The notes beneath the pieces are model-generated. The model did no database searches. It was not told where the DNA came from and saw nothing but the letters and a program-made list of their open reading frames with translations. A DNA stretch of 62,258 nucleotides, filler included, from Candidatus Omnitrophota bacterium (GTDB lineage Bacteria > Omnitrophota > Gorgyraeia > JAGLLT01): the NCBI GenBank assembly GCA_023140385.1. It is 5 parts of 5 records of this genome, joined end to end, with 100 filler letters (N's around TTAATTAATTAA, not from the genome) between each part and the next. Parts side by side here need not be neighbours in the genome. Positions count along the whole stretch, not along the records: positions 46,282 to 60,152 come from JAGLLT010000024.1; 4 more parts are not named here. One strand, given 5' to 3'. Below, piece by piece: positions 55,208 through 60,152 of this stretch. Within the stretch, counting starts at the first letter, position 1, and every line of letters starts with the position of its first letter. The translations under genes and the position numbers were made by a program.

Positions 55208-55933
55208 ATGGCAAAAGCATCGGAAAAAAACCAAAATAGCAAACAGATTATTAAAGCTCTGACCACTATAAGTGAGGCGGTAATATCCGATCAGTATTTA
55301 GATGATATCTTGAAACTGATCGTAACTGTGACAGCTGAGGTTATGGGTTCAAAGATATGCTCGCTGATGATGATAAGTGATTCCGGCAAAGAGCTGGTGA
55401 TTAAAGCCACACAGTCGGTGAGCGAGGCTTATAACAAAAAGCCGAACATTAAGGTGGGCGAAGGCATTGCCGGTGTGGTAGCTAAAGAGGCAAAGCACAT
55501 TACAGTTCTTGACGTTCGTAAAGACGAGCGCTATATAAACAGAGATATTGCTAAGGAAGAAAATCTTTACTCTCTGCTTAGCGTGCCGCTTATCTTTAAA
55601 GGTAAAGTAATTGGGGTCTTAAATAGTTATACGGCGCAACGTCACAGCTTTACTAAAAATGAAATAAACATTTTAAAGTCAGTAGCTAACCAGGCGGCTG
55701 TTGTTATTGAAAATTTCAGGTTGGTTGTTGAGTCTGAAATTATCAAAGAAGAACTTGAAACAAGAAAGAAGGTTGAGAGGGCAAAGGGCATATTAATGAA
55801 GCAGGGAAGCTTGAGCGAAAAAGAAGCCTATAATCTAATTAGAAAGTACAGTATGGACAGACGCAAGACCATGAAGGAAATATCGGAGGCAATTATACTA
55901 AGTGAGGATATGAAAAAATTATCAAAAAAATAA
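55208..55933 (+). CDS. GAF-ANTAR RNA-binding antiterminator (one-component regulator)
   Basis: GAF domain (GEGIAGVVA...SLLSVPL...IGVLN...ANQAAVVIEN) and ANTAR domain (LETRKKVERAKGILM...EKEAYNLIRKYSMDRRKTMKEISEAI). Confidence 0.9.
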   Translation: MAKASEKNQNSKQIIKALTTISEAVISDQYLDDILKLIVTVTAEVMGSKICSLMMISDSGKELVIKATQSVSEAYNKKPNIKVGEGIAGVVAKEAKHITVLDVRKDERYINRDIAKEENLYSLLSVPLIFKGKVIGVLNSYTAQRHSFTKNEINILKSVANQAAVVIENFRLVVESEIIKEELETRKKVERAKGILMKQGSLSEKEAYNLIRKYSMDRRKTMKEISEAIILSEDMKKLSKK

Positions 55934-55936
55934 AAC

Positions 55937-55965
55937 TTGACAGGAATTAATTAATGGTGTATAAT
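55937..55965 (+). promoter_or_regulatory. consensus sigma70 promoter of the sigma-factor gene leader
   Basis: Perfect TTGACA-17 nt-TATAAT. Confidence 0.85.
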
Positions 55966-55976
55966 TCTGTTGATGG

Positions 55977-56041
55977 TTAAAGCACAAAGATAGTGCTTTA
56001 AAAAGGAAGATACAAAGACGTTTTTTTAAACGTCTTTTTTT
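55977..56041 (+). promoter_or_regulatory. ANTAR-type dual hairpin plus overlapping terminator (element 1)
   Basis: P1 TTAAAGCAC-AAAGATA-GTGCTTTAA. P2 AC-AAAGAC-GT overlaps terminator AAAGACGTTT-TTTT-AAACGTCTTT-TTTT. Confidence 0.75.
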
Positions 56042-56061
56042 CGTTCAGAATAAGAGAAAAC

Positions 56062-56116
56062 AGGATAAAGACGTCCTTTTTATCAGCTGAGTCTGCTGAT
56101 GGGGACGTCTTTTTTT
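56062..56116 (+). promoter_or_regulatory. ANTAR-type hairpin plus overlapping terminator (element 2)
   Basis: AGGAT-AAAGAC-GTCCT overlaps the 5' arm of AAAGACGTCCTT..ATCAGC/GCTGAT-GGGGACGTCTTT-TTTT. Confidence 0.72.
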
Positions 56117-56162
56117 ATTGAGTTCACGGCTCGCGCGGTTTAAAAGATTTAAGGTGAGGAAA

Positions 56163-56699
56163 ATGTTTTTTAAAATATTGTATGAAAAAGTTAAGCCAAA
56201 GCTGAAGATGATAGCCAGGAAGCATAGCAGGCGCCTGCTTTTTGCTGACGCGGACGACCTGTATCAGGAGATGTGTATCCATTTGTGGGATAAATTTAAA
56301 AACGGCGTGCCGGAAGACATAAATGAAAGTTACATAGTCAGGGGCTGTGAATTTCACCTCTTAAACTATTTGAGAAAAGGAAAAGAAGCGATGACGGCAG
56401 TAAGCTTTGAAGAACCTATAAATGAAGACGGAAGTACCTTAAAAGACCTTTTGCCGGAAGAAAAAGAACCTGTTGATAGCTATGTAAATAGAAAAATAGT
56501 TATTGAGGAAATAAAAAGTAATGGTTTTTCTAAGAGAGAAAAGGAAGTTTTTTCTTTTTTACTGGAGGGCTATACTGTAAGAGAAACTGGAGAGGCGCTT
56601 GGCATTTCTCATGTGATGGTTGTAAAATTTAAAAGACGCATAGTAGAAAAGTGGCAAAAGAAGCATGGCGCGGGCAGTGCTTGCCGGGTAGCAAATTAA
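56163..56699 (+). CDS. alternative sigma70-family (ECF/SigH-like) sigma factor
   Basis: Region 2 DADDLYQEMCIHLW...LLNYLRK and region 4 FSKREKEVFSFLLEGYTVRETGEALGISHVMV. ATG 56163 follows GGTGAGG. Confidence 0.8.
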   Translation: MFFKILYEKVKPKLKMIARKHSRRLLFADADDLYQEMCIHLWDKFKNGVPEDINESYIVRGCEFHLLNYLRKGKEAMTAVSFEEPINEDGSTLKDLLPEEKEPVDSYVNRKIVIEEIKSNGFSKREKEVFSFLLEGYTVRETGEALGISHVMVVKFKRRIVEKWQKKHGAGSACRVAN

Positions 56700-56778
56700 T
56701 TTTAAAAAGTTTCTGTAAAATGGTTACCAAAATAACCAAATACTTACTTTAGATATAGAAGAAGACAAAATTTTTCAA

Positions 56779-56828
56779 GACACACTGTTGTGTCAGAACA
56801 AAGACGTTTATTCTTAAGCGTCTTTTTT
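56779..56828 (+). promoter_or_regulatory. ANTAR-type dual hairpin plus overlapping terminator (element 3)
   Basis: P1 GACAC-ACTGTT-GTGTC and P2 GAAC-AAAGAC-GTTT, both hexaloops with A1/G4. Terminator AAAGACGTTTA-TTCT-TAAGCGTCTTT-TTT. Confidence 0.8.
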
Positions 56829-58037: not shown

Positions 58038-58079
58038 GTTTGTCCGTTTAAACGAACTTCATTAAAGAAAGGAGAAAAA

Positions 58080-59447
58080 ATGTTAAAGATTTTACAAAAG
58101 ATACCAAAGTTAATGTTTTTTGTGCCTTTGGCTATGCTTACTTTGAGCACTTATGCCTTTGCTGATGAACCGACTGCTGCCAGTAACGCGATAGCCATTG
58201 ATACGGTATGGACTTTAGTAGCCGCCTTTTTGGTTTTCTTTATGCAGCCGGGGTTTGCGATGGTTGAGGTAGGTTTTACCAGGGCAAAAAACGCTTCAAA
58301 TATTTTAATGAAGAACCTTATGGATTTTTGCATTGGTTCAATTGCTTTTTGGGTGATAGGATTTGGTTTAATGTTTGGAGCAAGTGCCCTCGGGCTTTTT
58401 GGTACAAATGGATTTTTCCTGAGTACAGCTAATCCCTCTACTGCTGACGGGCTTTGGCAGTTTGCCTATTGGATATTCCAAGCTGTTTTCGCGGCTACGG
58501 CAGCAACTATAGTTTCAGGAGCGGTAGCTGAACGCACAAAATTCCCCGCTTATTTAGTTTATTCTGTTTTTATTTGTGCCATAATTTATCCTATTGTAGG
58601 ACATTGGATTTGGGGCGGTGGTTGGTTAGCGGCTAAAGGCTTTTTGGACTTTGCCGGTTCTACAGTAGTTCACTCAGTCGGCGGCTGGGCTGGTTTAGCC
58701 GGAGCGATGCTGTTGGGCCCAAGATTAGGGAAATACAACAAAGATAAAAGCTCTAATGCTATCCCGGGACACAATATTCCTCTTGCCGCTTTGGGAGTAT
58801 TTATTCTTTGGTTTGGCTGGTTTGGTTTTAATGCCGGCAGTACCACTTCTGGAACAAATCTGAGTATTGCCACCATTTGTGTAACTACCAGTTTAGCTGC
58901 TTCAGCCGGGGCTATTATGGCAATGTTTACCGCTTGGAAGAGGTTTGGTAAGCCCGACACGAGTATGGCATTGAATGGGGCGTTAGCCGGATTGGTGGCG
59001 ATTACTGCCGGGTGTGCTAATGTTTCTCCACTTAGCGCGATTATAATCGGAGCTATTGCCGGTGTGTTAGTAGTAGTGAGTGTAGAGTTTATTGATAAGG
59101 TTTTGCACATTGACGATCCCGTGGGAGCAATATCCGTACATGGGGTCTGCGGCATCTTTGGTACTCTTGCCGTAGGGCTTTTTGCCCAAGCCGCCTATGG
59201 CGAATCAAGCGGAATGGGCGCGATAAACGGCTTTTTCTTTGGAGGAGGTTTATCGCAGTTCTTTACCCAATTGATAGGTGTACTTTCTGTCGGTGCCTGG
59301 GTGTTCGGCTCTTCACTGCTTCTGTTTTACATTATTAAGAAAACCGTTGGACTTAGAGCATCTGATGAAGAACAGTTAAAGGGACTGGATATTACAGAGC
59401 ATGGTATGGAGTCTTATGCCGGCTTCCAGATATTTACAACAGAATAA
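58080..59447 (+). CDS. amtB: ammonium transporter
   Basis: FMQPGFAMVE, DFAGSTVVHSVGG, LWFGWFGFNAGS and IDDPVGAISVHG motifs. Confidence 0.96.
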   Translation: MLKILQKIPKLMFFVPLAMLTLSTYAFADEPTAASNAIAIDTVWTLVAAFLVFFMQPGFAMVEVGFTRAKNASNILMKNLMDFCIGSIAFWVIGFGLMFGASALGLFGTNGFFLSTANPSTADGLWQFAYWIFQAVFAATAATIVSGAVAERTKFPAYLVYSVFICAIIYPIVGHWIWGGGWLAAKGFLDFAGSTVVHSVGGWAGLAGAMLLGPRLGKYNKDKSSNAIPGHNIPLAALGVFILWFGWFGFNAGSTTSGTNLSIATICVTTSLAASAGAIMAMFTAWKRFGKPDTSMALNGALAGLVAITAGCANVSPLSAIIIGAIAGVLVVVSVEFIDKVLHIDDPVGAISVHGVCGIFGTLAVGLFAQAAYGESSGMGAINGFFFGGGLSQFFTQLIGVLSVGAWVFGSSLLLFYIIKKTVGLRASDEEQLKGLDITEHGMESYAGFQIFTTE

Positions 59448-59453
59448 TAACTA

Positions 59454-59536
59454 TTAGCGTATAGCGCGTAGTGTTTAGCGTATAGAAAAGCAAAAAGGTT
59501 TTAACTAAACGCTAAACACTACGCGCTAACCGCTAA
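59454..59536. repeat. heptamer-repeat inverted element (TAGCGNN / NNCGCTA)
   Basis: Perfect 20-bp stem 59462-59481/59509-59528, same family as 22786-22857. Confidence 0.8.
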
Positions 59537-59564
59537 AAAAAATGCTAAAAGATGGAGGTGTAAA

Positions 59565-59906
59565 GTGAAACTAATAATAGCAATGATTCAGCCGCATCAA
59601 CTGCCTGAAGTAAAAAAGGCGTTATTTGATGCTGAGGTGCATAATATGACTGTTACCAATGCTCTTGGATGCGGTAGGCAAAAGGGTTATACGGAAACCT
59701 ATAGAGGTGTAATACATGAGATAAACCTGCTTAAGAAGGTTAGGCTCGAAGTAGCTGTAAATGAGGACTTTGTTGAGCCGGCCATTAACGCTATTATAGG
59801 GGGCGCCAGAACCGGTAAAATTGGTGACGGGAAGATTTTTGTGCTTGATTTGCCTGAATGCATCAGGATAAGAACCGGAGAAAAGGGAAGCGAAGCTATC
59901 GGGTAA
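59565..59906 (+). CDS. glnK: P-II family nitrogen regulator (amtB-linked)
   Basis: [26 protein letters not shown] and IRIRTGE motifs. GTG start follows GGAGGT. Confidence 0.88.
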
Positions 59907-59925
59907 AATTATAGAAGAGTAGGTT

Positions 59926-59981
59926 GGACAAAGACGTCCGGTTTAGTACCGTGAAGGTAAATAAAACTGGACGTCTTTTTT
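59926..59981 (+). promoter_or_regulatory. ANTAR-type hairpin plus overlapping terminator (element 4), upstream of nifH
   Basis: GGAC-AAAGAC-GTCC overlaps the 15-bp stem AAAGACGTCCGGTTT/AAACTGGACGTCTTT followed by T run. Confidence 0.78.
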
Positions 59982-60027
59982 GTGTGAAAAGCATCTACCA
60001 TTTTGATAAATGACAAGAGGTGGTTAA

Positions 60028-60152
60028 ATGATTAGAAAAATTGCGATTTACGGAAAAGGCGGCATTGGTAAGTCAACAACAACCCAAAATATAGTAGCCG
60101 GATTAGTTGAAATGGGCAAAAAGATTATGGTTGTGGGGTGTGACCCCAAGGC
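60028..60152 (+). CDS. nifH: nitrogenase iron protein (NifH family), first 41 codons, truncated by contig end
   Basis: Manual translation [41 protein letters not shown](A), GAGGTG RBS. Absent from the ORF track. Confidence 0.82.

Follow-up and report, generated by a model that had tools for sequence, protein, structure and literature searches.

A candidate two-layer nitrogen switch in Omnitrophota: ANTAR-type antitermination leaders and a gated small sigma factor

Introduction

How does a bacterium that seemingly lacks sigma-54 match ammonium uptake and nitrogen fixation to its nitrogen supply? To our knowledge, global nitrogen control is represented by a handful of paradigms, all of which come from cultured model bacteria. 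The question is raised by a locus in a metagenome-assembled genome of Candidatus Omnitrophota (GenBank assembly GCA_023140385.1, here labelled G000; 1.5 Mb in 57 contigs, 41% G+C, 92.7% complete), where glnA, a gene for a protein with GAF and ANTAR domains, a small sigma factor gene, a P-II gene, a porin gene, amtB, glnK and nifH follow one another on the same strand. We analysed this locus, contig C17, which occupies positions 46282–60152 of a stretch of 62,258 nucleotides (the window) made of five contig pieces of the genome (C11, C12, C14, C17 and C50) joined by N spacers, and compared it with related genomes (G0xx) and loci (L0xx), those fetched by name being Candidatus Omnitrophota. The locus probably encodes a two-layer nitrogen switch, in which ANTAR-dependent antitermination is combined with a sigma factor that is itself gated by ANTAR, the two together making up a feed-forward loop.

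That ANTAR proteins control nitrogen genes is already known. Such regulons were predicted in 2012 (Ramesh et al., PMC3369931), the target being a pair of hairpins with A1/G4 hexaloops (A at position 1, G at position 4), the second of which overlaps an intrinsic terminator; in the sections of that paper drawn on here, the predicted targets comprise P-II, ammonium transporter and nitrogenase genes as well as genes for glutamate, glutamine and arginine synthesis, with several sites per genome. The same sections call the GAF-ANTAR architecture uncharacterised, and the portions of a 2025 review that bear on it (PMC12591593) list it only as a domain architecture. Regarding the sigma layer, our literature searches found no paper describing a sigma-70-family sigma factor that serves nitrogen assimilation specifically and is itself gated by ANTAR.

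Results

Hairpins overlapping terminators at the locus

The spacers between the GAF-ANTAR gene and nifH hold five attenuators on the + strand, at each of which a small hairpin (P2) overlaps an intrinsic terminator. A preliminary description of the locus had recorded four of them, recognised by AAAGAC loops that start at 56014, 56067, 56800 and 59930 and are directly followed by GT; these four are exactly as reported, but the tally has to be raised by a fifth site, whose hexaloop is GCGGGT (G at positions 1 and 4). At all four AAAGAC sites the loop and 3′ arm of P2 constitute the 5′ arm of the terminator, so that, as had been proposed, hairpin and terminator are mutually exclusive, and the four loop regions alone fold as strong terminator hairpins (−20 to −26 kcal/mol, z −3.3 to −5.0). 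An upstream partner hairpin (P1), which had been claimed for two sites, is present at sites 1 and 3. Moreover, AAAGACGT occurs eight times in the window on both strands, compared to 1.61 expected, a number that none of 100 shuffles reaches; seven of the eight copies lie in the locus, four of them at the loops and three as reverse complements in terminator 3′ arms.

Attenuator 3 (56779–56828; fold −20.1 kcal/mol, z −5.0) is a canonical dual hairpin, with P1 at 56779–56794 (GACAC[ACTGTT]GTGTC, loop in brackets), P2 at 56796–56809 (GAAC[AAAGAC]GTTT) and the terminator at 56800–56828. Attenuator 1 (55977–56041; −23.3 kcal/mol, z −4.8) likewise combines a P1 (55977–56001) with a P2 (56010–56023) and a terminator (56014–56041), and one compensatory change in P1 and one in the terminator are seen when it is compared with G001, a genome of the same genus. 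In attenuator 2 (56062–56116; −25.8 kcal/mol), P2 (56062–56077, AGGAT[AAAGAC]GTCCT) overlaps a terminator at 56067–56116, and the matching place in G003 reads AAGGAT[AATGAA]GTCCTT. Attenuator 5 (56855–56915; −24.9 kcal/mol, z −4.0), located directly 5′ of the P-II gene, has its P2 at 56855–56868 (GGAC[GCGGGT]GTTC), whose loop and 3′ arm begin a terminator at about 56861–56907, with a T run behind it; G003, G033, G008, G010 and L096 have homologous elements at the matching place, the loops there being GCAGGC or GGAGGC. Finally, attenuator 4 (59924–59981; −26 kcal/mol) precedes nifH, with P2 at 59924–59941 (TTGGAC[AAAGAC]GTCCGG) and the terminator at 59930–59981. No counterpart of it occurs in the matching spacer of G003 or of L096, which does carry the sigma gene, and the gate before nifH thus appears, as far as the relatives were examined, to be particular to this genome. 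An Rfam scan of 50000–60153 (E ≤ 10) returned only sub-threshold chance matches and no riboswitch or known leader.

The ANTAR signature in related leaders

The same layout recurs in related genomes, which are not independent samples, a limit that holds for all counts across relatives given here and below. Among 93 distinct leaders that lie behind the special promoter motif described further on, 78 include a terminator, and 47 of these carry an A1/G4 hexaloop hairpin on its 5′ arm, compared to 257 of 5369 terminator-like sites used as a control in the present genome; the next best letter pair in the 78 leaders, G1/G4, accounts for 11 and every other pair for at most 8. A P1 core of the form CAC-N6/7-GTG is found in 69/93 leaders (205 of 20000 random control windows), and with an A..G loop in 52/93 (17 of 20000). 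Within 29 dual hairpins chosen by a pattern that fixes the inner pairs, the unconstrained outer pair of P1 is AU in 17 cases, GU in 5, GC in 3, CG in 1 and unpaired in 3, while the third pair of P2 is GU (11), AU (10), GC (1), UA (1) or unpaired (6), and the fourth is paired in 14/29 only. Among sites selected for three pairs, the P2 stems include GAAC/GTTC, AAAC/GTTT, AGAC/GTCT and GGAC/GTCC.

Further leaders before nitrogen genes of the genome

In the whole genome (1.5 Mb) the pattern AAAGACG...CGTCTTTT occurs six times, four of them at this locus, and at least three further attenuators are located on contig C38. The first of these, at C38:3516 (loop AAAGAC), stands before glnA2, an HTH_8 protein gene, gltB and gltD; the second (C38:11694–11732), with a 7-nt P2 loop, AAAGCGG, precedes a gene with a Glu_synthase domain; and the third, at C38:13615 (loop AGAGAC, P1 loop AAGGAG), precedes carA-carB. 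A P1 in tandem with P2 is seen at all three, as it is at window sites 1 and 3. The possibility that the motif is a generic terminator repeat spread across unrelated genes, which had been named as a way in which the preliminary description could fail, did not materialise, for the further A[AG]AGAC-GT/terminator sites precede nitrogen genes too.

The preliminary description had proposed a covariance model and expected its matches ahead of nitrogen genes, and a model built from the 29 dual hairpins of related leaders, site 3 included, for the most part finds them there: a scan of the genome (E ≤ 10) returned six matches, of which five fall into the two nitrogen clusters (site 3, site 1, the glnA2 leader, C38:11694 and site 4), but the sixth, C32:3764, lies inside a coding frame and was taken as chance. 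Site 3 is the best match (38.4 bits) but belongs to the training set; site 1 scores 18.1 bits (model R1) and site 4 weakly, at 12.7 bits. The model, which demands a P1 of the CAC...GTG type, missed sites 2 and 5 as well as the carA site. Also taken as chance were two AAAGAC-type occurrences within coding sequence (C10:658 and C11:14130) and a plain terminator behind a secretin-like gene (C11:15542), and a generic scanner for A1/G4 hexaloop hairpins with a terminator was dropped as a genome-wide detector: with 281 matches it was too permissive, and under stricter rules its 33 matches fell within the range of other letter pairs.

Two observations concern the glnA2 cluster itself. A leader of about 270 nt (C38, locus L170, 3565–3840), which separates the ANTAR terminator from glnA2 and matches no Rfam family, holds several GC-rich inverted repeats. 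Between glnA2 and gltB, a 98-aa Fis-family HTH_8 protein is encoded (L170 5270–5563) at a position kept in many Omnitrophota loci; possibly it acts on the nitrogen cluster as another small DNA-binding regulator.

A one-component GAF-ANTAR protein

The regulator gene (55208–55933, + strand) encodes a protein whose ANTAR domain (PF03861, 71.6 bits) lies well above the family cut-off of 27.3 and follows an N-terminal sensor domain (Pfam GAF_2, 74 bits); it is the sole ANTAR match in the genome and has no receiver-domain match in Pfam. Its relatives in the PDB are Rv1626, the response regulator 6wsh and NasR, and the GAF domains closest to its own are those of PtsP (PDB 3trc and 3ci6; NCBIfam PRK11061) and NifA. 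GAF domains of the PtsP/NifA type are said to read glutamine or 2-oxoglutarate. Of 40 relatives in the class, about 30 encode an orthologue, mostly next to glnA or to other genes of nitrogen assimilation, and some relatives have two paralogues: L024 (G006, in tandem), L029 (G036) and L067/L068 (G017). As to other nitrogen regulators, the DNA-binding domain of RpoN (Sigma54_DBD) was not found in the 92.7%-complete genome, and Sigma54_activat gave two weak matches only (36 and 25 bits).

It is conceivable that the leaders are real attenuators but answer to a different RNA-binding protein, or to an RNA that senses a small molecule, and that the ANTAR gene is a mere neighbour. G009, where such sites occur in a genome with no ANTAR match, would fit this explanation, as would the lack of P1 at three of the five window sites and the unspecificity of the generic A1/G4 rule genome-wide; it accounts poorly, however, for the approximately 12-fold enrichment of A1/G4 at leaders and for a dual-hairpin layout that fits the published ANTAR target (PMC3369931). 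Moreover, an ANTAR gene adjoins the leaders not only here but in 29 of 65 sigma loci (see below), and the leaders are only about 50 nt long and match no riboswitch in Rfam. We consider this explanation unlikely and control of the leaders by the GAF-ANTAR protein the better reading. G030, which also lacks an ANTAR match, possesses amtB but no such leaders in the 240 nt read.

A small sigma factor and its neighbours across genomes

Inside the gated region, 56163–56699 (+ strand) encodes a protein of 178 aa counted from an ATG preceded by the ribosome-binding site GGTGAGG; comparison with the orthologues suggests that the frame most likely begins at this ATG (56163). The protein exceeds the cut-off of TIGR02937 (49.4 bits against 42.9) and matches Pfam Sigma70_r2 (28.2 bits, cut-off 24) and GerE (E 1.5e-5), and in size and content, with regions 2 and 4 only, it conforms to sigma factors of the extracytoplasmic function (ECF) type, which have about 170–200 aa. 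An AlphaFold (AF2) model calculated from 41 sequences has a mean pLDDT of 77, and the PDB matches listed for it by Foldseek are all sigma-70-family factors, covered over both domains at low TM-scores, which may reflect the free orientation of the two domains in the model.

Orthologues are patchily distributed, being found in 11 of 41 genomes of the class, this one counted, and absent from 30. The gene is full-length in nine further genomes, and in these amtB/P-II lies downstream on the same strand, in most cases adjoining the sigma gene and 2–5 kb off in G008, G025 and G027; in G010 and G027 an ANTAR gene stands on the other side as well. A species-level genome collection contains 246 stretches that encode a relative of the sigma factor. 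Among the best 80 of these, amt, porin or P-II genes lie on the same strand within 3 kb downstream in 50/64 loci with at least 2.5 kb of downstream sequence, and an ANTAR homologue lies upstream on the same strand in 29/65 loci with at least 3.5 kb upstream. The records are mostly Omnitrophota, together with Syntrophorhabdaceae, 'delta proteobacteria', Elusimicrobia, Aerophobetes and some bins that are evidently mislabelled. In a set of 73 related loci, a terminator-like hairpin occurs within 420 nt upstream of the sigma gene in 58, and in 31 of the 73 an A1/G4 hairpin sits on one. No anti-sigma gene was noticed among the neighbours of the sigma gene, for which no systematic search was made. 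In L058 (G008), the region about 420 nt upstream of the sigma gene holds at least three head-to-tail copies of a unit of about 52 nt, partly masked by N.

These linkages bear on the explanation that the sigma gene is an unrelated passenger that entered the leader in this genus, the cascade being no more than apparent, and the repeated AAAGACGT a recent local duplication of one terminator. Such a view draws on the identical sequence of the four loops and on the absence of the sigma gene from 30/41 relatives and from a sister genus with the same operon, whereas the linkage of sigma and amtB is kept across phyla at 40–66% protein identity, the loop letters vary among relatives while A1/G4 and pairing persist, and the motif recurs on another contig, ahead of other nitrogen genes. 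The synteny counts largely refute it, and we hold it to be highly improbable.

A sigma-70-type promoter and a candidate promoter of the small sigma factor

A sigma-70-type promoter, TTGACA-17-TATAAT (55937–55965, + strand), lies directly after the GAF-ANTAR gene and starts the leader of the sigma gene. It is the only 12/12 match in 53000–60152 and is found at the same position in G001 and G003. A different element, GGTTACC-N15-TTACTT (56722–56749, + strand), is located 3′ of the sigma gene, a position at variance with an autoregulated promoter, and is a candidate promoter of the small sigma factor: GGTTACC followed after exactly 15 nt by TTACTT or a near variant stands just behind the sigma gene in all of the first eight loci. 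Strict and looser forms of the pattern each have exactly two matches in the genome, both before ANTAR leaders of nitrogen operons, one (56722) ahead of attenuators 3 and 5 and the other (C38:3422) ahead of the glnA2 attenuator.

Across the 41 related genomes the motif has 17 matches, compared to eight for the reversed control, and 16 of the 17 are in genomes with the sigma gene; it is present in 10/11 of these and in 1/30 without the gene, the latter being a single match of atypical sequence in G004. The matches either follow the sigma gene or precede porin/amtB, glnA, HTH_8-gltB and, in G017, the GAF-ANTAR gene. None of six amtB leaders examined in sigma-less genomes has the motif, and TTGACA-type promoters are found at the amtB leaders of four such genomes (G003, G009, G028 and G019). 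In the sister genus (G003) the operon is the same and has two ANTAR gates behind a sigma-70-type promoter, but there is neither a sigma gene nor a gate before nifH. To judge from these genomes, evolution can dispense with the sigma layer.

The co-occurrence of motif and gene also touches the identity of the 178-aa protein, which might be a LuxR/GerE-type activator that binds GGTTACC and aids the housekeeping holoenzyme rather than a sigma factor. Its GerE match (E 1.5e-5) and marginal region-2 score point that way, and LuxR-type regulators appear among its PDB sequence matches. Against this, the motif substitutes for a TTGACA-type promoter and does not accompany one, and its two blocks always stand 15 nt apart in the first loci (8/8); in addition, the protein passes the TIGR02937 cut-off and every listed Foldseek match is a sigma factor over both domains. 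We therefore rate an activator as rather improbable and continue to treat the protein as a small sigma factor.

Other genes of the locus and the window

The gene order given in the preliminary description agrees with the Pfam assignments, which cover eight genes, glnA included, all on the + strand. The gene for glutamine synthetase, glnA (53816–55198; Gln-synt_C 415 bits, plus Gln-synt_N), ends 9 nt 5′ of the regulator gene, and the pairing of glnA and ANTAR is retained among relatives. Its start is overlapped by an open reading frame (53107–53850) that is NAD-synthetase-like by eye from its translation, no family search having been made, and 5′ of which lies a promoter-like site, TTGACA-17-TAAGAT (53039–53067); this frame may belong to a single unit with glnA and the GAF-ANTAR gene, one that has no attenuator.

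Downstream of the sigma gene, 56930–57262 encodes a divergent P-II protein of 110 aa (P-II, 75.5 bits), which shows only 34–37% identity to glnK-type P-II in cross-matches and is the first gene after sigma both here and in several relatives (L053, L096, L122, L137 and L154). It is followed by a putative porin gene of the TorF/Gcw_chp type (57285–58037; Pfam Gcw_chp, TIGR02001 below its cut-off), by amtB for the ammonium transporter (58080–59447; Ammonium_transp 452 bits), by a glnK-type P-II gene (59565–59906; 93.8 bits) and by the first 41 codons of nifH (60028–60152; Fer4_NifH 68 bits), which the contig end truncates. The nifH gene is broken by a contig end in G003 too. Elsewhere in the present genome, C49 carries nifK and a fragment of nifD, and C38 has a homocitrate-synthase-like gene. 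Between amtB and glnK (59455–59535), a long inverted repeat is followed by an A run and hence forms no terminator on the + strand; a different hairpin occupies the same spot in G003, and the repeat may be an element of mRNA processing or stability.

The joints of the window (18309–18408, 42703–42802, 46182–46281 and 60153–60252) are N runs around a short linker with stops in six frames, and genes that flank a joint are not neighbours.

Discussion

Read along the + strand, the locus consists of a sigma-70-type promoter, two gates, the sigma gene, the sigma motif, two gates, the P-II/porin/amtB/glnK genes, one gate and nifH. By default, RNA polymerase would halt at every terminator. Nitrogen limitation would change the state of the GAF domain, most likely via 2-oxoglutarate or glutamine, upon which the ANTAR domain would bind the hexaloop hairpins, so that the terminators could not form and transcription would read through. 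The first product would be the small sigma factor, which would then fire its own promoters before P-II/amtB and, on C38, before glnA2-gltBD, and the transcripts made in this way would require the ANTAR protein once more. The outcome would be a coherent feed-forward loop that obeys AND logic and whose gating is graded, with two gates to the sigma factor, two more to ammonium uptake and one more to nitrogenase. The feed-forward cascade suggested in the preliminary description is thus supported and extended, with comparative support for each of its elements, and we judge the two-layer switch to be the probable design of the locus. Most likely, as the leaders suggest, a single GAF-ANTAR protein overrides the default-off stop signals of uptake, glutamine/glutamate-synthesis and nitrogenase genes. 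Whereas anatomy, conservation and the co-occurrence of motif and sigma gene are results read from sequence, we infer ANTAR binding, the signal and recognition of the promoter by the sigma factor.

Several points speak against this design, beside the relatedness of the genomes compared. In the window, sites 2, 4 and 5 have no recognisable P1; P2 of site 1 consists of two contiguous pairs only, and the P1 loop of that site, AAAGATA, has 7 nt; and position 1 of the site 5 loop is G instead of A. A generic rule of A1/G4 plus terminator is not enriched genome-wide (33, compared to 16–39 for other letter pairs), so that for specificity one has to rely on the lineage motif and the context. Among relatives, G009 (94% complete) has no ANTAR match, yet contains look-alike sites before porin-amtB, and G034 carries sigma fragments but no motif. 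Of the sigma loci in the wider collection, 12/64 have no nitrogen gene within 3 kb and 25/64 lack the strict motif. The region-2 Pfam score of the sigma factor is marginal (28.2 versus 24 bits) and its C-terminal part scores as GerE; finally, 2-oxoglutarate or glutamine as the GAF ligand is a guess.

A wider proposal, which we regard as doubtful and put forward only tentatively, is that the GAF-ANTAR protein and the small sigma factor could together be the master nitrogen control of Omnitrophota and other anaerobes (Syntrophorhabdaceae, some Elusimicrobia and others), in place of NtrBC/sigma-54, GlnR/TnrA, NtcA or NrpR. In such a scheme, GAF would read 2-oxoglutarate/glutamine directly, the gates would impose the order sigma factor, uptake/assimilation, nitrogenase, and the divergent P-II would tune the sigma factor or the antiterminator in the place of an anti-sigma factor.

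As it stands, a large uncultured phylum, seemingly without sigma-54, appears to layer RNA antitermination by one protein on a dedicated sigma factor. If this is true, GAF-ANTAR proteins would receive their first function, and a new group of sigma factors, its promoter and regulon defined, would be recognised; the circuit, a compact feed-forward loop, would lend itself to reconstitution in the test tube. The promoter motif and the leaders could also serve as sequence markers that predict ammonium uptake or nitrogen fixation by environmental Omnitrophota.

In comparison with known systems, the leaders resemble those of EutV/eut of Enterococcus faecalis, NasR/nasF and AmiR/ami in their A1/G4 hexaloop hairpins, paired at some of the sites, with the second of a pair overlapping the terminator, and differ from them in the one-component GAF-ANTAR protein, the tandem gates, some of which have single hairpins, and the sigma gene among the targets. 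Like E. coli sigma-E, B. subtilis SigW and other ECF (group 4) sigma factors, the small sigma factor is a two-domain protein of small size with a dedicated candidate promoter motif in two parts and a small predicted regulon beside its gene; in contrast to them, its own gene has a promoter of the sigma-70 type, with RNA terminators as gates in place of autoregulation, and the predicted regulon is nitrogen assimilation. The nearest worked example is the GnfL/GnfM and GnfK/GnfR cascade of Geobacter sulfurreducens, where, according to the parts of the work cited here (PMC2995071), nitrogen-fixation and amtB/glnK genes likewise depend, in a cascade, on a special promoter system together with ANTAR antitermination. 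The present system is not of the GnfK/GnfR type, defined by a receiver-ANTAR (REC-ANTAR) protein and a histidine kinase acting on RpoN-dependent transcripts: Geobacter relies on RpoN and an enhancer-binding protein for the promoter, and on a REC-ANTAR protein in its phosphorylated form for antitermination (PMC2995071), whereas here RpoN was not found in the genome and the sensor is a GAF domain. The direction of control also appears to be reversed, for in Geobacter an activator acts on the gene of the antiterminator (PMC2995071), while in Omnitrophota the antiterminator would act on the gene of the sigma factor.

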